Assembly (NCBI GenBank): GCA_016184345.1
Contig: JACPCV010000005.1
Span: 97,017 to 161,016 of the forward strand
Reading direction: 5' to 3'
DNA: 64,000 nucleotides
DNA from: Candidatus Woesearchaeota archaeon
GTDB lineage: Archaea; Nanobdellota; Nanobdellia; Woesearchaeales; UBA10216
The notes beneath the pieces are model-generated. The model was given only the letters and a program-made list of their open reading frames with translations, had not been told where the DNA came from and did not search any database. Position numbers and translations under genes: made by a program. Of the stretch, positions 3,656 to 57,177 are shown piece by piece (positions within the stretch are counted from its first letter, which is position 1; each line of letters begins with the position of its first letter).

Positions 3656-4174
3656 ATGCCACACCAAAGACTGTGCAATGGCAAAAAGGCCCAGTACCTT
3701 ACCATTGACGCTTTTATTGCATCAATGATAGTGGCAGTATCCCTTGTCATAGTCCTTGCTGCCAGGACAACCCTGCCTTACACTTCACAGTCAGAGGCTG
3801 TGTCAAAAGGCCTTGCTGAATCACTGTCGCAGGTGAAGCTCAGCGAACTCAACAACCCCCTTGTCATCAACATGTCAAGAAACGGCACAATAACAAATCT
3901 GGACAACACAATACTCCAGCAGGCGGCTGAGTTTTATTTCATCGGGAACAGGCACTACGCTTTTGAGCTGCTCAGGAATGTCAGCCAGACACTCATACCA
4001 AAGCAGTACAGCTTTGACGTCATAGTAAACAACGACCTGCTTTACAACAGGACAATAAAAACAGAGAACTCCAGCAGCGTGCTCGTGTCATCAAAGAAGC
4101 TTGTGTTTGGCGTTGTCAACAGGACAGCCCTTGTTTACGGCCCCACAATAGCTGAAGTCAGGCTCTGGCAATAA
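3656..4174 (+). CDS. Pilin-like / pilus-associated protein
   Basis: MPHQRLCNGKKAQ|YLTIDAFIASMIVAVSLVIVLAA. An alternative ATG at 3623 is possible. The stop codon lies inside the palindromic element at 4167-4202. Confidence 0.6.
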   Translation: MPHQRLCNGKKAQYLTIDAFIASMIVAVSLVIVLAARTTLPYTSQSEAVSKGLAESLSQVKLSELNNPLVINMSRNGTITNLDNTILQQAAEFYFIGNRHYAFELLRNVSQTLIPKQYSFDVIVNNDLLYNRTIKTENSSSVLVSSKKLVFGVVNRTALVYGPTIAEVRLWQ

Positions 4175-4202
4175 GGGGCTGCACCCCCTTATCAACCCCC
4201 GC
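4167..4202. repeat. 34-36-nt palindromic element, copy 1 (ggcaataagggg-ctgca-cccccttatcaacccccgc)
   Basis: Reverse complement of the consensus GGGGTTGATAAGGGG-N-CCCCTTATTGCC, which is also seen at 15626-15715, 54029-54062 and 57146-57177. It contains the TAA stop of ORF 3656-4174. Confidence 0.85.
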
Positions 4203-5378: not shown

Positions 5379-5476
5379 GGGAAAGAGGTTCAATCCAGAA
5401 AACGAAAGCTTTTTGATTAACCTTTCCCAAATCGTGCAAACGCACGATTGGGCCCAGTCGCTGGAGGCGACTTGGG
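5379..5476. repeat. Composite hairpin element (long hairpin plus twin bulged hairpins)
   Basis: Hairpin gggaaagaggttcaatc..gattaacctttccc (5379-5428). Twin hairpins cccaaatcg..cgattggg (5426-5452) and cccagtcgc..gcgacttggg (5453-5476). Same modules as the proS insert at 34257-34345. Confidence 0.85.
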
Positions 5477-8177: not shown

Positions 8178-8283
8178 TGTCCAGTGCAAATCGGTTACGC
8201 CGATTGCACACAGCATCGGCAACAGCCGATGCGTATAGGCGGCGTAACCGCCTATATTCCGCATCGCGGAATTGTGTCCAGTG
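8178..8283. repeat. Four-hairpin array flanked by 9-bp direct repeats TGTCCAGTG
   Basis: Direct repeats at 8178-8186 and 8275-8283. Hairpins at 8186-8207 (bulged), 8213-8232 (gcatcggc/gccgatgc), 8235-8255 (ataggcgg/ccgcctat) and 8256-8272 (attccgc/gcggaat). Confidence 0.85.
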
Positions 8284-10837: not shown

Positions 10838-10913
10838 ACTTCATTACCTCCTCAATTTCTTTTTTTGTGTTGCTGTCAGCACAAGCTGCTATAAATACTT
10901 AACGCTTGGTAAG

Positions 10914-10987
10914 CGCCCTCTCCGGGATTTGAACCCGGATTAAAAGCTCCGGAAGCTCTTGTCATGTCCGGATTAGACCAAGAGGGC
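10914..10987 (-). tRNA. tRNA-Arg (CCG), intron-less
   Basis: The reverse complement folds as GCCCTCT/AGAGGGC acceptor, anticodon arm AGAGC-TTCCGGA-GCTTT, and T-arm CCGGG-TTCAAAT-CCCGG. Discriminator G; no encoded CCA. Confidence 0.85.
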
Positions 10988-11001
10988 ATGAACAGACATT
11001 A

Positions 11002-11115
11002 AAACGCCCCCACTGGGAATCCGCGCCCTGATGGGCTTGGAACCCAGTGGATGGATGGCTAAACGCCCCCACTGGGTGACTTCGCCTTTCGGCTCAGGAC
11101 CCATTGGTGGCTAAA
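11002..11115 (-). repeat. Two extra tandem copies of the tRNA-Arg 3' end (T-stem plus acceptor plus trailer)
   Basis: aaacgcccccactggg occurs at 11002-11017, 11061-11076 and 11113-11128; the last copy belongs to the tRNA at 11116-11248. Copies 2 and 3 have T-stem-like helices closing non-tRNA loops. Confidence 0.8.
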
Positions 11116-11248
11116 CGCCCCCACTGGGAATTGAACCCAGATCTCAGCCTGCCTGCTGACGGATACTCGCCGTCGTTTTTGGGTTGAACCTTTTTCGCAA
11201 AAAAGGGTCATTCGCGGGGCCGCATCTTGTCCGTTGGACCATAGGGGC
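11116..11248 (-). tRNA. tRNA-Arg (GCG, tentative) with a ~61-nt anticodon-loop intron
   Basis: Acceptor GCCCCTA/TGGGGGC. Anticodon stem CGGCC/GGCTG with loop CCGCGAA (C33 is atypical). Intron about 11150-11210, starting TGACCCTTTTTT. T-arm CTGGG-TTCAATT-CCCAG. Confidence 0.65.
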
Positions 11249-11250
11249 AT

Positions 11251-11340
11251 GACCTTCTTAGGAAGAATGTCACCGGAGAGGTGACATCCTTCGGCTACCC
11301 GCCGAAGTAAGGCCAATCAAGAAGCCTTCTCTTAAGCGGT
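11251..11340. repeat. Array of four short hairpins directly upstream of the tRNA-Arg(GCG) 5' end
   Basis: ttctt/aagaa, gtcac/gtgac, cttcggc/gccgaag and agaag/cttct stems. On the tRNA strand the segment begins GCCCCTT (11362), which mimics the tRNA 5' acceptor strand. Confidence 0.6.
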
Positions 11341-11368
11341 CGAACGCATTGTGTTGAAGGGGCGTTTA

Positions 11369-11469
11369 AATATAGAGGACTTTGAATAACCCCTATTTAT
11401 CACTTTTGTTCAAAGTCCTCTAAGACAACTTTGACACTTTACAGATAGATAATCAAAGTTGTCTATATT
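11369..11469. repeat. ~100-bp double-hairpin repeat 'X', copy 1
   Basis: Near-identical to the reverse complement of 30779-30920, except for a 43-nt insertion in that copy and a different second loop. Stems are agaggactttgaa/ttcaaagtcctct and agacaactttga/tcaaagttgtct. Confidence 0.9.
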
Positions 11470-11537
11470 GCTGTGGCGGCAGCCGCGGAGTGGCGGCGGC
11501 AAAAGCTTATTAACTATTGCCTTTTCCTGACACTTCC

Positions 11538-25464: not shown

Positions 25465-25611
25465 GGGCCCATAGTTCAGCTTGGCTAGAACGCCGCACAA
25501 CCTTTTTCACAAAAAGGTTGATCAAAAACCTTGGAAAAGGTTGGGCGAGTCTGATATTCGGTTAGCGAATCAGTCAGGCGGAGGTCCTCGGTTCAAGTCC
25601 GAGTGGGCCCA
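25465..25611 (+). tRNA. tRNA-Ile (GAT, tentative) with two introns
   Basis: Acceptor GGGCCCA/TGGGCCC, D-arm GTTC..GAAC, T-arm CTCGG-TTCAAGT-CCGAG. The anticodon arm reconstructs as CCGC[53 nt, 25497-25549]T-CTGATA[19 nt, 25557-25575]A-GGCGG. Confidence 0.6.
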
Positions 25612-30497: not shown

Positions 30498-30709
30498 CGA
30501 GCCCGCCGGGACTTCCTCACTGGCGTTCGGGGCATAAATCGCTGATGCGATTGTGCCCAGTCGGTTTTGCACCGACTTGGGCATTGCCGCCTCGGGCGCC
30601 AATATTTGAACCCAGATCAATCGGTTGCTTCTTCTTCGTTTTTGATTGGCCTTTTTCCTAAAAAGGTCATCCGAAGCCGATCGCACTGTCCGGATTGTGC
30701 TACAGGCCC
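30498..30709 (-). tRNA. tRNA-Arg (TCG) with a 45-nt anticodon-loop intron and a 93-nt T-loop insertion
   Basis: Acceptor GGGCCTG/CGGGCTC (two G-U pairs), D-arm GCAC..GTGC. Anticodon arm ATCGG-CTTCGGA[30625-30669]-CCGAT. T-arm CTGGG-TTCAAAT[30511-30603]CCCGG. Confidence 0.7.
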
Positions 30710-30778
30710 ACGCCCTTGACTAATCCCGACCACTATTTAAAGCTATTTTTATGCTCCGCTCCGGGCTAATGAAAAAGA

Positions 30779-30920
30779 ATATAGACAACTTTGATTATCC
30801 CATAGTTATTTGTCAAAGTTGCCTCAGCGTATCGCTGAGGGATGTCAGCTATCAGCTGACATTGTCTTAGAGGACTTTGAACAAAAGTGATAAATAGGGG
30901 TTATTCAAAGTCCTCTATAT
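30779..30920. repeat. Double-hairpin repeat 'X', copy 2 (inverted), carrying a 40-nt twin-hairpin insertion with TTG duplication
   Basis: Reverse complement of 11369-11469. The extra segment at 30822-30864 is cctcagcg-tat-cgctgagg ga tgtcagct-atc-agctgaca, flanked by ttg at 30819-30821 and 30862-30864. Confidence 0.9.
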
Positions 30921-30943
30921 AAAAACAGCCAAAGAGTTGCCTT

Positions 30944-31534
30944 ATGCAAAAATTAAGAAAGCACTTTGCAAATGCAATCGGAATTTTAGCGAAAAACCTC
31001 ACAAAAAAGCAAGTTGCCATAATATCAGTAATAGCCCTAGCGTTCGTTGCCCTTTTTCATGATTTCTTCAAAGCGCTGACAGGGGTAACGTTGCTTTTCC
31101 TTCTCGGAGCGTTTTCCACCTTCTACAAAAAGAAGCTTGAGGGGTTTGGAGCAATAGGATTTGAACTGGTCACTTTCACAACAACAATAGCTGGTGTTGC
31201 TTTTGGCCCACTTGCCGGAGCGATGTTTGGCTTCGCAACTGCCCTGTCCTCTGTATTGATATCAAAGGATGTTGGTGTCACAACCCCCGTATTCCTGCTC
31301 GCCACAGCCATAGCTGGCGGGTTAGCACATCCTCTAAGTGCACTATTCAGCATAGTCCAATTAGGTATTATGCTCGTCCTTTTTTCAACAGCGACTATAC
31401 TGGTTTTTACATTCCTCTTTTACCGGGATGCCGAAATCAGGGCTGCAGGCATGCTCGGCATACTGACAAACCTGGCAGTTAATTACATCTTCTTCTCTTA
31501 CCTTGCAAAGCCCATCCTGGCCATTATTGCATAG
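30944..31534 (+). CDS. ~196-aa polytopic membrane protein, paralog family member 2 of 4
   Basis: FSTFYKKKLEGFGAIGFELVTFTTTIAGVAFGPLAGAMFG aligns with members 3 and 4. Confidence 0.65.
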   Translation: MQKLRKHFANAIGILAKNLTKKQVAIISVIALAFVALFHDFFKALTGVTLLFLLGAFSTFYKKKLEGFGAIGFELVTFTTTIAGVAFGPLAGAMFGFATALSSVLISKDVGVTTPVFLLATAIAGGLAHPLSALFSIVQLGIMLVLFSTATILVFTFLFYRDAEIRAAGMLGILTNLAVNYIFFSYLAKPILAIIA

Positions 31535-32859: not shown

Positions 32860-34407
32860 ATGTCTGATGGCAAAAACAAAAAGGCCGCTGCAGCAGCCGA
32901 AGACAAAAAGACAATCGGGCTTACCGTAAAGAAATCCGAGGACTTCTCAGAGTGGTACACACAGGTAATCGCCAAGGCAGAGCTTGCAGACTACACGAAA
33001 GTGTCAGGATGCCTGGTGCTCAGGCCTTACGCATACGCAATCTGGGAAAAGATAGTCAAAGAGGTTGATGCAAGGCTCAAGAAGATGAGGGTGCAGAACT
33101 GCTACTTCCCGCTGCTCATACCCGAGAGCCTGCTCAAGAAGGAGGAGCAGCACATCCAGGGATTCGCGCCCGAAGTTGCCTGGGTAACCCATGCAAGCGA
33201 CACCAAGCTTGATGAGCGGCTCGCAGTAAGGCCTACTTCCGAGACAATAATGTACGATTCTGTCTCAAAATGGGTAAGGAGCTGGAGGGATTTGCCTCTC
33301 AAGCTTAACCAGTGGAACAACGTTGTACGGTGGGAGTTCAAGCACCCCACGCCCTTCATAAGGACAAGAGAATTCCTCTGGAACGAAGGACACACTGCCT
33401 TTGCCACAAAAGAAGAGGCAGAGGCCGAGATAGGGGAGATACTGTCGCTATGGAAGGATATCACTGAAAATTTCCTTGCAGTTGCCGGAATTACAGGGCA
33501 AAAAAGCCAGTCCGAGAAGTTTGCCGGCGCAGTTGCCAGCTACAGCATAGAATTCTTCCTCCCAAACGGCAGGGCAGCGCAGGGGCCTGACGCACACTTT
33601 GACGGCCAGAACTTTGCCAAGGCGTTTGACATCACATTCCTGAACGAGAAAGGCGAAAAGGATTATGTCTGGCAGAACACGTGGGCAATAACCACAAGGA
33701 TGATTGGCATACTGGCAATGGTGCACGGCGACGACAAAGGCTTGGTTATCCCGCCAAACATAGCGCCTGTACAAATAGTTATTGTCCCGATATTGTTTGA
33801 AGACTCCAAAAAGGAAGTCCTGGCAGCTGCAAACAAGATAAGAAAAGAGCTGGAGAAAGAAAGCATAGCTGCCGAAGTTGACGGCCGCGAGACTTACACT
33901 GCCGGCTGGAAGTTCAACGAGTGGGAGCTTAAGGGCGTCCCAGTCAGGATAGAAATTGGACCTAGAGACATGCAGCAGAAGCAGGCCATCATCGTAAGGA
34001 GAGACACATCAGCGAAGGAAACCGTCAAGCTGGAAGCTGTTGCAGCTGCCGCAAGGAAAACGCTTGCCGAAATCCAGGAGTCACTCTACCAAAAGTCAAA
34101 GCAGCAGCTTGAAAACAGCATTGTGGCTGCCAAAAACATTGGTGAAATCGCCACTGCAGTGAAAAGCAAGAAGCTCGCAAAAGCAGATTTCTGCGGCTCA
34201 GCAAAGTGCGAGGCAGAAGTCAAGGAAAAAGCGGACGGAGCAACCTCAAGGTGCATGACCCTTTTAGAACCCAAATCGACAGAAGCCGATTGGGCCCAGT
34301 CGTCGCAACGACTTGGGAAAGGGTCAATCCAAAAACGCGAACAAATGGGCAAATGCGTTGTGTGCGGAAAAGAAGGAGTTGCGAGCTGGTTTGGGAAGGC
34401 GTACTGA
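32860..34407 (+). CDS. proS: Prolyl-tRNA synthetase, archaeal type, with an in-frame repeat-derived insertion near the C-terminus
   Basis: FSEWYTQVI, RPTSETIMY, WNNVVRWE (class II motifs), and the C-terminal ..CVVCGKEG..WFGKAY end. Extra residues TLLEPKSTEADWAQSSQRLGKGS.. are encoded by the element at 34257-34325. Confidence 0.9.
   Translation: MSDGKNKKAAAAAEDKKTIGLTVKKSEDFSEWYTQVIAKAELADYTKVSGCLVLRPYAYAIWEKIVKEVDARLKKMRVQNCYFPLLIPESLLKKEEQHIQGFAPEVAWVTHASDTKLDERLAVRPTSETIMYDSVSKWVRSWRDLPLKLNQWNNVVRWEFKHPTPFIRTREFLWNEGHTAFATKEEAEAEIGEILSLWKDITENFLAVAGITGQKSQSEKFAGAVASYSIEFFLPNGRAAQGPDAHFDGQNFAKAFDITFLNEKGEKDYVWQNTWAITTRMIGILAMVHGDDKGLVIPPNIAPVQIVIVPILFEDSKKEVLAAANKIRKELEKESIAAEVDGRETYTAGWKFNEWELKGVPVRIEIGPRDMQQKQAIIVRRDTSAKETVKLEAVAAAARKTLAEIQESLYQKSKQQLENSIVAAKNIGEIATAVKSKKLAKADFCGSAKCEAEVKEKADGATSRCMTLLEPKSTEADWAQSSQRLGKGSIQKREQMGKCVVCGKEGVASWFGKAY
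34257..34345 (+). repeat. Structured element inside proS: 8-bp outer stem enclosing twin bulged hairpins, followed by an AATCCAAAAACG tail
   Basis: gacccttt (34257-34264) pairs with aaagggtc (34318-34325). Inner hairpins are cccaaatcg/cgattggg and cccagtcg/cgacttggg. The core is 69 nt, or 23 codons. Related to tRNA intron modules and to 5379-5476. Confidence 0.85.
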
Positions 34408-35008: not shown

Positions 35009-35057
35009 TTCAGTTTAACGCTATTCAGAGTTTATACTATTTAAATTTTCCGCCTTT

Positions 35058-35108
35058 ATCGTGTGCGGCAAGGAAGGAACGGTTGCGTGGTTTGGAAAAG
35101 CTTACTAG
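35058..35108 (+). repeat. Displaced copy 2 of the proS 3' end
   Basis: Translates as IVCGKEGTVAWFGKAY*, against CVVCGKEGVASWFGKAY* in proS. The nt sequence has diverged mainly at synonymous positions. Confidence 0.85.
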
Positions 35109-35906: not shown

Positions 35907-35977
35907 TTGTAATACAATGTGCACATTGTATATTTAAATGTTTCTGTTTCACTCAAAAATACAGAAACCCAGAAAAA

Positions 35978-36037
35978 GGCGGCTGTGCTGTGTGTGGCAA
36001 GGAAGAAATAGTTACGTGGTTCGGGAAGGCGTATTGA
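35978..36037 (+). repeat. Displaced copy 3 of the proS 3' end
   Basis: Translates as GGCAVCGKEEIVTWFGKAY*. Confidence 0.85.
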
Positions 36038-41760: not shown

Positions 41761-41913
41761 ACAGAATTCCACTCATCTATGATGAGTGGGGTTCTGTGTG
41801 CTCAAAAACCACCGGTTCGTGGAATTCTGAGCGTCAAAACAGCATCGGCAGCAGCCGATGCGTATCGACCCGAGGTCGATAAATGCCACCGGTCTCTGAC
41901 CGGTGGTTTTTGA
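41761..41913. repeat. Multi-hairpin element inserted between vapB and vapC
   Basis: Hairpins at 41769-41789, 41842-41861 (gcatcggc/gccgatgc, as at 8213-8232), 41863-41881 and 41887-41907. A 14-bp long-range stem pairs 41804-41817 with 41900-41913. Confidence 0.85.
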
Positions 41914-53381: not shown

Positions 53382-54645
53382 GGTGTGTTACGGCCGCACC
53401 AGTGACTTCAACCTCTACAAACTTTCCCAGCATGCCCTCGCTGCCCCTGATGACAACAGGCTTGTAGGCAAAATTTCTTGCTACGACCGTGCCAGGCTCC
53501 TTCCCCTTCTCATCAACAACAGCCCTGCCCTTCCAGCCAACCCAGCCAAGGTTCCTGTCAAGCGCAATCTTTTTTGCCAATGCGTGCAGTTTCCTGCTCC
53601 TTTCCATCACAGTTTCATCAGGCAGCCTTTCCATTTTTGCAGCTGCAGTGCCGGGCCTGGGCCAGAACCTGGAAACGTTCACGACATCAGGCTTTATCTC
53701 TTCAATGACAGCCATAGTTTCCCCAAACTGCCTGTCTGTCTCGATTGGAAAGCCGCAGATTATGTCGGTTGCTATCGTAATTTGCGGTAGCTGCTTTCTA
53801 AATTCCGCAACGATTTTTTTGAAAGTTTCAACTTTATACCCGCGCTTCATGGCCGCCAGGACGCTGTTGCTGCCTGACTGAAGCGGGATGTGCAGGAACT
53901 TGAAAACCTTGTCATGCTTGAACGCCTCAATAAGAGACTGCAGCAGGTGGTTCGCAAGGGTCGGGTTCATCATCCCAACACGGATTTGGAAATCGCCATC
54001 AATGCCGCATAGCTGCTGCAACAGCTGCGGCAATAAGGGGGTACCCCTTATCAACCCCCGCCTATCAAGCCCGTAAGTGCCGGTATCCTGGCTTGTCAGC
54101 CAAACCTCCCTGCAGCCTGCCTTAACAGATTCCTCAGCGCTGTTGCGGATTGTCCCGATGAGGTAAGAGAGCGTGTTGCCCCTGGCTGCTTTTGTAATGC
54201 AAAACGAGCATGAACCGAGACAGCCCTCGTTAATCTGGATGATGCTCACCGCGCTGTTAAAGCTCAGCTTCGGCAGCGATGCCTTGTCAACGCTGCTGCC
54301 ACCGACAGCAAGATTAGCCTTCCCTTCAACAACATCAACAATCTCGTTTATTTTATGAGTTCCGATTACGGCTGCAGCTGGTGATAATAGCCGTACGCTT
54401 TCGGTTTGCGCCTCTGACATGCAGCCTGCAATCACAAGGCGCTTGCTGCAATCTTGCAAGTCATGAATCCTTCTCCTGATTTTCTCCTCAGTCGGGCCTT
54501 TTACCGTGCATGTGTTGACAATTATGGCATCAGCATCCTCAGAAGCTGCGACCACCTGATGCCCACCCTTGTTGAGCAGCCCGGCCATTATCTCGGAATC
54601 ATTCACATTGGCAGAGCAGCCGTAAGTTTCTATGCAGACTTTCAT
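53359..54645 (-). CDS. MiaB/MtaB-like tRNA methylthiotransferase (radical SAM plus TRAM)
   Basis: MKVCIETYGCSANVNDSE, INEGCLGSCSFCITK (CxxxCxxC), C-terminal TRAM-like region. It contains palindromic element copy 3 in frame (RRGLIRGTPLLP). Confidence 0.9.
   Translation of the reverse strand: MKVCIETYGCSANVNDSEIMAGLLNKGGHQVVAASEDADAIIVNTCTVKGPTEEKIRRRIHDLQDCSKRLVIAGCMSEAQTESVRLLSPAAAVIGTHKINEIVDVVEGKANLAVGGSSVDKASLPKLSFNSAVSIIQINEGCLGSCSFCITKAARGNTLSYLIGTIRNSAEESVKAGCREVWLTSQDTGTYGLDRRGLIRGTPLLPQLLQQLCGIDGDFQIRVGMMNPTLANHLLQSLIEAFKHDKVFKFLHIPLQSGSNSVLAAMKRGYKVETFKKIVAEFRKQLPQITIATDIICGFPIETDRQFGETMAVIEEIKPDVVNVSRFWPRPGTAAAKMERLPDETVMERSRKLHALAKKIALDRNLGWVGWKGRAVVDEKGKEPGTVVARNFAYKPVVIRGSEGMLGKFVEVEVTGAAVTHLKGLLHR
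54029..54062. repeat. Palindromic element, copy 3, inside the MtaB-like CDS
   Basis: ggcaataaggggg-ta-ccccttatcaacccccgcc. Read on the minus strand it encodes GGLIRGTPLLP with no stop. Confidence 0.85.
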
Positions 54646-57107: not shown

Positions 57108-57177
57108 GGGTTGATAAGGGCGCGCTGCCTCATCGCCCCCGTCGTGGGGTTGATAAGGGGTGGAGCCCCTTATTGCC
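57108..57177. repeat. Palindromic element: half copy (57108-57120) plus full copy 4 (57146-57177), abutting the tRNA-Ser 5' end
   Basis: gggttgataaggg is the half copy. ggggttgataagggg-tggag-ccccttattgcc is the full copy, and its last three nt are the first nt of tRNA-Ser. Confidence 0.85.

Follow-up and report, generated by a model that had tools for sequence, protein, structure and literature searches.

Does a short DNA hairpin move in Woesearchaeal genomes, and what does it move into? The question is raised by a 64,000-nucleotide stretch of Candidatus Woesearchaeota archaeon (GenBank assembly GCA_016184345.1, contig JACPCV010000005.1, positions 97,017 to 161,016), which is the window referred to throughout. 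It contains two inverted copies of a hairpin-forming repeat, here called X, and the second copy carries 43 nt that are missing from the first. A preliminary description, made from the letters of the window alone, had read the two copies as an empty and a filled site and had taken the pair as proof that a 40-nt twin hairpin was inserted. Comparison with other genomes gave an answer in two parts. X is almost certainly a non-autonomous DNA transposon, a MITE (miniature inverted-repeat transposable element), with a 4-bp TATA duplication, a point absent from the preliminary description. The twin hairpin in copy 2 is probably a mobile module nested within this element, and the form of X that lacks it is ancestral.

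Repeat X and its target sites

X and its flanks comprise the following features in the window; names beginning with L denote retrieved loci of other or related DPANN genomes.

11375..11463, plus strand: X copy 1, the insert-free double-hairpin MITE; 89 nt, within the family standard of 88-89 nt; hairpin 1 is GAGGACTTTGAA...TTCAAAGTCCTC and hairpin 2 is AGACAACTTTGA...TCAAAGTTGTC
11371..11374: TATA duplication left of X copy 1, a single TATA at L137; it also completes the TATATTTAAA box facing tRNA-Arg(GCG)
11464..11467: TATA duplication right of X copy 1
30784..30915, minus strand: X copy 2, the same MITE inverted; 132 nt (89 + 43), both terminal inverted repeats intact
30780..30783: TATA duplication on the hairpin-2 side of X copy 2; L141 and L142, which are without X, have a single TAAA or TATA there
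30916..30919: TATA duplication on the hairpin-1 side of X copy 2; the ATG of the membrane-protein gene (30944) follows 24 nt downstream

Alignment of 11350-11490 (plus strand) with 30760-30940 (minus strand), together with a repeat search, bore out the inverted pair and its match over hairpin 1 and the arms of hairpin 2; X is present in two copies in the window. Two pairs of repeat arms were recovered, one of 65 nt with 97% complementarity (hairpin 1 and the junction) and one of 50 nt with 80% (hairpin 2). Hairpin 1, including its 22-nt loop, and both stems of hairpin 2 show no differences between the copies, whereas the hairpin-2 loop (18 nt) differs at 8 positions. A stem motif of 12 nt, AGA(GG/CA)ACTTTGA, occurs 8 times against 1.6 expected, always within the two X copies. 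Copy 1 folds as DNA at -22.4 kcal/mol (z = -8.3), and no open reading frame (ORF) lies inside X in either its empty (89 nt) or its filled (132 nt) form.

The pattern of hairpin 1 was scanned against one genome per species, so that copy numbers are lower bounds. More than 116 matches were found, 7-20 per genome, nearly all in assemblies of Woesearchaeota, Pacearchaeota, Nanoarchaeota, and Aenigmatarchaeota, and those listed are dispersed without a common gene order. Copies aligned genome by genome share one plan, namely TATA, then GAGRGTTTTGAA-loop-TTCAAAACYCTCT-AAG-AAGGACTTTGAA-loop-GGGGTTATTCAAAGTCCTC, then TATA, and the similarity between copies ends precisely at the flanking TATA on both sides. 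The terminal inverted repeats are imperfect and about 19 nt long, being made up of the outer arms and adjoining loop bases; X ends in GAGGACTTTGAATAACCCC and, with the other end reverse-complemented, GACAACTTTGATTATC... in the window, and in GAGRGKTTTGAWTAACC and GAGGACTTTGAATAACCCC in other genomes. The 3' part of hairpin 1, GGGGTTA, is conserved across genomes. Among the matches listed, 80 copies from dozens of genomes are complete, with a standard length of 88-89 nt. Identical 4-nt flanks can be seen in 68 of these 80, TATA/TATA in 58 and a matching pair other than TATA in 10 (TATT seven times, TAAT, AATA, and TTTA once each); ten such non-TATA pairs were reached in 0 of 20,000 permutations (p < 5e-5). 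The identical flanks, including the non-TATA pairs, are therefore a 4-bp target-site duplication.

Both window copies have empty counterparts in relatives. The neighbour of copy 1, a gene for an RsuA-like pseudouridine synthase, has a 91%-identical homologue in L137 with gene order kept. The empty site there reads gaggcgtttaaaTATAttgttgtagcggcagcc, where the window reads gaaggggcgtttaaaTATA[X]TATAttgctgtggcggcagcc, and the window without 11375-11467 aligns colinearly with L137 (figures for this comparison come from alignments made after removal of X). In L137, 27 nt separate the end of the TATATTTAAA box from the tRNA 5' end. The membrane-protein gene beside copy 2 has homologues of 86% and 68% identity in L141 and L142, respectively, with gene order kept and X lacking in both, and at L142 the orthologous start codon is preceded, 24 nt upstream, by a single TATA. 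Judged by the positions of TATA in L137 and L142, the promoters struck by X in the window are those of tRNA-Arg(GCG) and of the membrane-protein gene at 30944, each copy having entered the TATA box. Short-read contigs from other samples with X-flanking genes all terminate within X, which is what a repeat would lead one to expect. In sum, X shows all the MITE features that were tested except an autonomous partner: it is short and non-coding, has terminal inverted repeats and a fixed target duplication, and occurs as dispersed copies with empty sites in relatives. A putative transposase, encoded elsewhere, would insert X by a 4-bp staggered cut at TATA-like sites, which would explain the TATA on both sides of its copies. 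In view of the 4-bp duplication and of ends that begin with GAG, a DDE enzyme, perhaps IS5-like, would be expected. At both window insertions the duplication rebuilt the box on the gene side.

Several other identities of X were considered and rejected. An ORF start (ATG-started ORFs of at least 70 codons) lies 12-40 nt from the flank in 9 of 79 family copies only, so there is no consistent promoter link, and X is not a general promoter cassette; the promoter hits are real in the window and are not family-wide. Replication-origin boxes or a regulator's operator would not account for target duplications, empty sites, and a copy number above 100. An invertible or integrated segment of 19 kb between the X copies was rejected as well, because housekeeping genes (helicase, PTH2, and Alba) lie inside it and relatives without X have the same gene order. 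A known RNA family did not emerge either, as Rfam at gathering thresholds returned tRNA only and permissive scans gave noise-level, miRNA-like hits on the hairpins. X and the insert had no match in viral contigs, and no description of the X family was found in the literature.

The nearest known counterparts are the Correia elements, MITEs of Neisseria, which duplicate TA and whose long and short forms differ by an internal block of about 50 bp. X is like them in being about 100 bp long and non-coding, in its many dispersed copies, terminal inverted repeats, and short AT-rich target duplication, and in adjoining genes with ends able to form or rebuild promoter elements. It is unlike them in that 4 bp (TATA) are duplicated, in its two complete hairpins with inner arms that mirror the terminal repeats, and in being archaeal and common to several DPANN lineages. 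Unlike the block of the Correia long form, the extra block in X copy 2 is an added foreign module rather than the remnant of a longer ancestor. Correia elements can generate a promoter at either end (PMC2649163), prokaryotic MITEs have been reviewed (PMC10969869; PMC3184786), and a 2024 census placed a Woesearchaeal genome among the most MITE-dense archaea, with 105 per Mb (PMC11602168).

Two points on the hairpin loops can be added. One X-type copy (L080:6707-6794) has unaltered stems in hairpin 1 but a loop that is reverse-complemented relative to all other copies, as recombination within the hairpin would produce by flipping the loop. The sequence CAAATAACTATGGGATAA occurs as a loop in X elements.

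The twin hairpin in X copy 2

30822..30861, minus strand: twin-hairpin module, 40 nt, reading TGTCAGCT-GAT-AGCTGACA, TC, CCTCAGCG-ATA-CGCTGAGG; on the plus strand its hairpins lie at 30822-30840 and 30843-30861
30819..30821: TTG (CAA on the minus strand), first triplet of the direct repeat
30862..30864: TTG, second triplet of the direct repeat

On the minus strand, the 43 extra bases of copy 2 read CAA-TGTCAGCTGATAGCTGACA-TC-CCTCAGCGATACGCTGAGG, followed by CAA, and they interrupt hairpin 2 in its inner 5' arm, with GACAA on one side and CTTTGA on the other. The 46-nt segment folds into two perfect hairpins at -17.3 kcal/mol (z = -6.5; 0 of 200 shuffles as good). The position and the twin-hairpin form given in the preliminary description were recovered. 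The sequence of the insert is unique within the window. Because it sits in the inner arm of hairpin 2, the terminal repeats of X are intact, and the filled X could still move.

The argument that an empty and a filled site within one window prove insertion did not survive. Each X copy is a MITE insertion of its own that related genomes lack; there are two sites here, not one, and the pair alone proves nothing. The direction of change was instead read from the close X type, characterised by hairpin 2 AGACAACTTTGA, of which 12 distinct copies were obtained from the window, the genome scan, and a metagenome scan that contributed only 4 further X-type copies. Of the 12 copies listed, 10 are empty. 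The preliminary description had held that deletion would be supported if all other X copies contained the 43 nt, and the opposite was found. Besides copy 2, the only filled copy among the 12 is L044, from a different Woesearchaeal genome, with an insert at the identical bond (aagacaa/TGTTGACAACGGTCAACA-AG-GTTCCGCCATAGGCAGAAC/caactttgac). The copy closest to L044, L130, stands at another locus and has no insert. Outside the insert, L044 and L130 differ at 2 positions, copy 1 and L044 at 5, copy 1 and copy 2 at 8 (all in the hairpin-2 loop), and copy 2 and L044 at 10, so that neither filled copy is the closest relative of the other. The two inserts are identical at 21 of 41 positions, whereas the remainder of X is 89-97% identical.

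These comparisons show that the empty form of X is ancestral and that the twin hairpin was gained independently at the same bond, GACAA^CTTTGA, in another genome, two gains being the economical reading. The preliminary description was thus right to call the change an insertion, as judged by the standard length of 88-89 nt, the 10 empty copies of the 12 listed, the distance between the filled copies, and a homologous module outside X (below). Copy 2 may have arrived already filled.

The triplet repeat around the insert needs separate treatment. That TTG/CAA is duplicated in copy 2 was confirmed; its nature as a target-site duplication, also claimed in the preliminary description, found no such support. 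CAA flanks both X-borne inserts, copy 2 and L044, which share one target. TTG/CAA is not always duplicated, as the module copy outside X is flanked by GAA and TAA, and other twin-hairpin gains relative to relatives have duplications of 0-4 nt, for example GATT (4 nt) or nothing recognisable. Flanks of CAA/CAA twice and GAA/TAA once could reflect a 3-bp duplication or, just as well, an xAA sequence needed at the target.

Hairpin modules outside X and their possible movement

11267..11307, plus strand: homologous twin hairpin outside X, ATGTCACC-GGAGA-GGTGACAT, C, CTTCGGC-TACCC-GCCGAAG
11257..11343 (approximate limits): array of small hairpins, 87 nt, between the TATA box and the 5' end of tRNA-Arg(GCG); absent in L137

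The twin hairpin at 11267-11307, within the 87-nt leader array of tRNA-Arg(GCG), aligns without gaps to the copy-2 insert 19 kb away (30 of 41 positions identical, 73%), with the same hairpin order and a similar spacer. Compensatory pairs between the two were found at columns 7/15, 24/40, and 27/37. When the L044 insert is included as a third copy, both partners have changed in 7 of the 15 stem pairs and pairing is kept in 95.6% of cells, a result equalled in 0 of 500 shuffles and approached by no slid register. With three sequences only, this is an indication rather than proof of compensatory stem evolution. A covariance model, R1, was built from the same three copies, so that its scores for the copy-2 insert (57.5 bits) and for 11267-11307 (53.1 bits) are high by construction; weaker hits fell at 41842-41881 and 8213-8257 (E ~0.002) and at L119:1007-1046 (E 0.01).

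Small hairpins are frequent in general. The window has 50 perfect small hairpins compared with 8-21 in shuffles, and a scan for adjacent pairs (perfect hairpins with a stem of at least 7 bp, a loop of 3-6 nt, and a gap of up to 4 nt) gave about 17 distinct sites in the window and retrieved loci compared with 0-1 in shuffles. Across about 1 kb of non-coding and tRNA DNA compared with L137, L141, and L142, there are 6 indels, and all 6 are built of hairpin modules: X copy 1, X copy 2, the 87-nt leader array, a twin hairpin in the L137 tRNA-Arg(GCG) intron, a 93-nt T-loop insertion, and a twin hairpin in the intron of the L141 orthologue. Filled and empty states at one position in relatives were seen for the modules of the tRNA leader, introns, and T-loop; the copy-2 insert was compared across X copies only.

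Several other hairpin arrangements were noted in the window and in retrieved loci. A second twin-hairpin type, with TACA...GTAC...TGTA bounds, occurs at L017:7324-7370, L059:4841-4887, L050:3608-3664, L053:3541-3596, and L112:4975-5014. Its ends (CAAGRAG.../...CTYCTTG) and its TA or GTA repeat suggest a Stowaway-like mini-element that duplicates TA, and in L053 it is nested in another hairpin. In L066 and L111, from one genome, a 73-nt double hairpin with an ACT repeat occupies the hairpin-2 loop of the MITE. In some MITE copies of genome nzgw56 (L023, L031, and L053) and of JACPND (L064), the stretch of hairpin 1 between AAGAAG and GACTTTGAA holds a longer, different twin hairpin (GATACCAACGGACAGAA... 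and TACAAAAGTCCTAA...), whose stems show compensatory changes from one genome to the other. An intergenic array of five hairpins lies at 41765-41907 of the window, the last stem being followed by TTTTT. Its first module (about 41765-41830) is CAGAATTCCACTCATC-TAT-GATGAGTGG...CGTGGAATTCTG, which has a homologue in the MITE loop of L128, a distant Nanoarchaeota genome, on the minus strand upstream of MITE hairpin 1; the array hairpins TATCGACC and GCATCGGC resemble a pair in L119:1007-1046 (compare 41842-41881). An 88-nt array of four small hairpins at 8187-8274 lies between perfect 9-nt direct repeats, TGTCCAGTG (8178-8186 and 8275-8283), and possibly represents a further family of MITEs that duplicates 9 bp of target. 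The second of the four hairpins, CAGCATCGGCARCAGCCGATGCGTAT, also occurs at 41840-41865. A stem ATAAGGGG...CCCCTTAT with varying loops has three window copies (4171-4192, 54033-54051, and 57153-57173), which may be terminator-like or another repeat family.

Three known systems were compared with the twin hairpin. It is like repetitive extragenic palindromes (REPs) and bacterial interspersed mosaic elements (BIMEs) in consisting of GC-rich, imperfect palindromes of about 20 nt each, non-coding, intergenic, and set in pairs or arrays, and the doublet as a unit resembles a REPIN. Both hairpins of the copy-2 insert are perfect and, as for REPs and BIMEs, belong to the 20-40-nt class in intergenic DNA, paired or arrayed. 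REP superfamilies are defined by a GTAG or CGTC head (PMC3733652), and REPs, BIMEs, and REPINs are mobilised by RAYT (PMC3733652; PMC3184786). On inspection, neither head is present at the twin-hairpin ends, which read (CAA)TGTC...GAGG(CAA) and (GAA)TGTC...GAAG(TAA), and no RAYT-type gene was seen in the window, where the scan covered 10 large ORFs, none of TnpA size. Twin-hairpin copies also differ by compensatory stem changes, whereas REPs within one genome retain their sequence.

The double-hairpin elements of Allomyces mitochondria form a second class of mobile double hairpins. Shared features are a length of about 25-80 nt, two adjacent hairpins, and a structure kept while sequence drifts; the mitochondrial elements likewise insert in intergenic DNA, introns, and variable RNA-gene positions and carry no enzyme. 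Their mobility was deduced from filled and empty sites, which here were seen for other hairpin modules. The twin hairpin differs in belonging to a DPANN archaeal chromosome and in being nested in MITEs and tRNA introns, and the comparison is one of analogy, with no sequence relationship claimed. Hairpin-forming mitochondrial repeats have also been described in sponges (PMC2800124) and as the GC clusters of yeast (PMC4478555). By its form, the twin hairpin most resembles such mitochondrial double-hairpin or hairpin-forming repeats, as analogues and not as relatives.

The third comparison is with palindrome-associated transposable elements (PATEs) derived from IS200/IS605, which are moved by a Y1 HUH transposase as single-stranded DNA, insert beside a fixed 4-5-nt target without duplication, and are usually over 100 nt long. 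The twin hairpin would share with them a hairpin at each end and, as proposed here, recognition of the folded strand, by which the conservation of pairing rather than sequence might be explained; it is unlike them in the 3-nt direct repeat at 2 of 3 copies.

On these grounds, the twin hairpin in copy 2 is best regarded as a further palindromic module, smaller than X and lodged in the inner arm of hairpin 2, and we consider its mobility probable. It would belong to a family of double hairpins of about 40 nt that are gained and lost in the intergenic DNA, tRNA leaders, and tRNA introns of this lineage, and it would have entered X at GACAA^CTTTGA, either here or in a parent X before transposition. 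As a non-autonomous element, it would be moved by a putative enzyme encoded elsewhere. We tentatively suggest, by analogy with REP/RAYT or IS200/IS605, that it might be recognised as a folded hairpin of single-stranded DNA rather than by a sequence-specific double-stranded end. This is favoured because the stems keep their pairing by compensatory change while the sequence drifts, and also because the copy-2 module lies between TATA boxes that face outward, a region from which no transcript would be expected. On this view, the CAA repeat would be either the duplication from a 3-bp staggered cut or a sequence required at the target.

Some observations weigh against this account of X and its nested module. 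For neither element was a transposase found among the 10 large window ORFs scanned, which are housekeeping or unknown, and a search of about 0.8 Mb of retrieved loci for an autonomous partner of X, meaning two X ends at a distance of 250-5000 bp with an ORF between them, gave no hit. The interior of copy 2 (30566-30890) has no independent assembly support in the data examined, as Logan contigs stop at 30565 and restart at 30891, and a 50-aa ORF within this gap matched no record. This twin-hairpin family has two copies in 64 kb that are 27% different, which shows no recent transposition of the module. The homology of the L044 insert is inferred mainly from shape (51% identity), and the 3-nt repeat, possibly a staggered-cut duplication, would equally fit a sequence carried by the element or microhomology. 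Lastly, the compensatory changes that maintain the stems also fit selection for a host function.

Among the alternatives, the one that survives best, although we regard it as improbable, is that the twin hairpin is not mobile and was instead formed where it stands, or by recombination, at a structural hot spot, for instance through fold-back or template switching at a break in the stem of hairpin 2, or gene conversion from a different array. A long DNA hairpin stem is a plausible break site, and a hot spot would explain why L044 was struck at the same bond by a barely related sequence. The inconsistent flank duplications (0-4 nt) at other hairpin gains and the lack of a transposase among the 10 window ORFs or in the retrieved loci also fit. 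However, neither arm of the insert was copied from nearby, as the insert is unique in the window, and new synthesis would not yield a 73%-identical copy with the same hairpin order and spacer in another context 19 kb off. Distant genomes also have modules in common (for example, about 41765-41830 and the L128 MITE loop; L119:1007-1046 and 41842-41881).

It is less likely still that the twin hairpin and X are kept for the host, for instance because they bind protein as a cruciform, separate the two divergent promoters, or give rise to a processed RNA. Maintained stems, the identity of hairpin 1 and its loop in both copies, the conserved GGGGTTA, and the position of both X copies on promoter TATA boxes would agree with such a role. 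The target duplications of X and the empty sites in relatives, on the other hand, indicate arrival by transposition; a transcript is not expected between the two outward-facing TATA boxes that enclose the copy-2 twin hairpin, the only Rfam matches are the noise-level miRNA hits, and, with only 9 copies of 79 near an ORF start, there is no consistent link to promoters. Later adoption of a mobile element by the host may have occurred and would be an addition to the explanation by mobility, not an alternative to it.

Ancestral presence of the 43 nt, with loss from copy 1 by slippage between the TTG/CAA repeats, is largely refuted and very improbable: the 3-nt repeat is suitable microhomology and, on the four-copy tree, one gain and two losses take a single event more than two gains, but the 88-89-nt standard of the 80 complete copies listed, the 10 empty close copies of the 12 listed, and the insert homologue outside X speak against it, and two inserts of 51% identity inside X sequences of 89-97% are incompatible with one filled ancestor.

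tRNA genes, host region, and significance

11115..11249, minus strand: tRNA-Arg(GCG) with a 61-nt intron; called by ARAGORN with introns allowed, 36.8 bits with the Rfam tRNA model
about 30498..30709, minus strand: tRNA, probably Arg(UCG), whose anticodon loop is CUUCGGA; intron of 45 nt; hairpin-rich insertion of 93 nt at 30511-30603, in the middle of the T-loop

Both X copies had been placed on the 5' side of tRNA-Arg genes in the preliminary description. For copy 1 this holds, with tRNA-Arg(GCG) about 120 nt away; the neighbour of copy 2, about 70 nt away, is only probably a tRNA-Arg. Beside the X copies, default ARAGORN called tRNA-Arg(CCG) at 10913-10987 only. The gene at 30498-30709 gave a weak Rfam hit (15.9 bits) and was called by ARAGORN only after removal of 30511-30603. 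Its orthologues in L141 and L142 have intact T arms, and that in L142 was called tRNA-Arg(TCG), although ARAGORN isotype calls vary with intron placement. The window gene either has newly gained a non-canonical intron or is a disrupted gene. X lies close to tRNA-Arg genes because it inserts into promoter TATA boxes, and there is no link to tRNA as such. Segmental duplication of a tRNA together with X was rejected, since the X copies have opposite orientation relative to the tRNAs, the spacers (120 and 70 nt) are unrelated, and X is absent in relatives.

Further observations concern the tRNA genes themselves. Default ARAGORN misses 2 of 4 tRNA genes in the window. One that it missed, tRNA-Ile(GAT) at 25465-25611, has a 54-nt intron that begins with a hairpin, CAACCTTTTTCACAAAAAGGTTG, and starts of like kind are seen in two tRNA-Arg introns (ACCCTTTTTTGCGAAAAAGGTT and GACCTTTTTAGGAAAAAGGCC). 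Orthologous tRNA-Arg introns at L137:2250-2345 and L141:1925-2030 contain extra twin hairpins absent from the window introns. In L137, for example, these are CCCAAGTCGAC-cgct-GTCGACTGGG plus CCCAATCGTGC-tttt-GCACGATTTGGG. The window has single hairpins related to them, AGTCG...CGACT and AATCGTGC...GCACGATT, at 5430, 15642, 15666, and 30559. Between both tRNA-Arg genes, at 10992-11128 on the minus strand, the 3' end of tRNA-Arg(GCG), CCCAGTGGGGGCGTTTA, stands in three tandem copies, 52-59 nt apart. L137 shows only one such 3' end at this place, along with two additional genes, one for an unknown protein of 176 aa and one for an NTP_transf_2 protein. The triple 3' ends look like the remains of integration and excision at a tRNA 3' end.

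The window encodes Alba, PTH2, a Hel308-like helicase, an archaeal-type ProRS, a class I LysRS, and SRP54, and all close relatives found are metagenome-assembled genomes of Woesearchaeota or Nanoarchaeota; it is therefore an ordinary DPANN chromosomal region. Two other kinds of repeat were also recorded. A 65-nt segment at the end of the ProRS gene (34343-34407), encoding CVVCGKEG..WFGKAY and then a stop, recurs at 35044-35108 and 35973-36037 with 60-71% identity, each ending in a stop, and may be a conserved cysteine-containing tail common to three ORFs. At the left edge, pairs of direct repeats about 2 kb apart (1-129 and 2002-2130, 92%; 363-471 and 2418-2526, 74%) suggest tandem gene duplication.

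DPANN genomes are very small and are usually called streamlined, and yet the window and its relatives show layers of tiny non-coding mobile elements. The 89-nt, TATA-targeting X is common to several DPANN lineages and has landed here in two promoter TATA boxes. Together with the smaller modules, X breaks short-read assemblies, so that contigs from other samples end inside it, conceals tRNA genes from standard tools, and can replace the sequence directly upstream of a promoter TATA box. If the small modules are mobile, they would offer a simple system for the movement of DNA that carries no enzyme and a possible route by which archaeal tRNA introns come to unusual positions. A further-reaching idea, which we put forward as a rather doubtful possibility, is that double-hairpin DNA modules of about 40-50 nt form a class of their own in DPANN archaea, not described before. 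They would encode no enzyme, be recognised by their shape, insert site-specifically into MITE stems, tRNA leaders and introns, and even a T-loop, and pile up into intergenic arrays of about 90 nt. If true, no smaller mobile DNA would be known from archaea, and the modules would be candidates for the origin of new, non-canonical tRNA introns.

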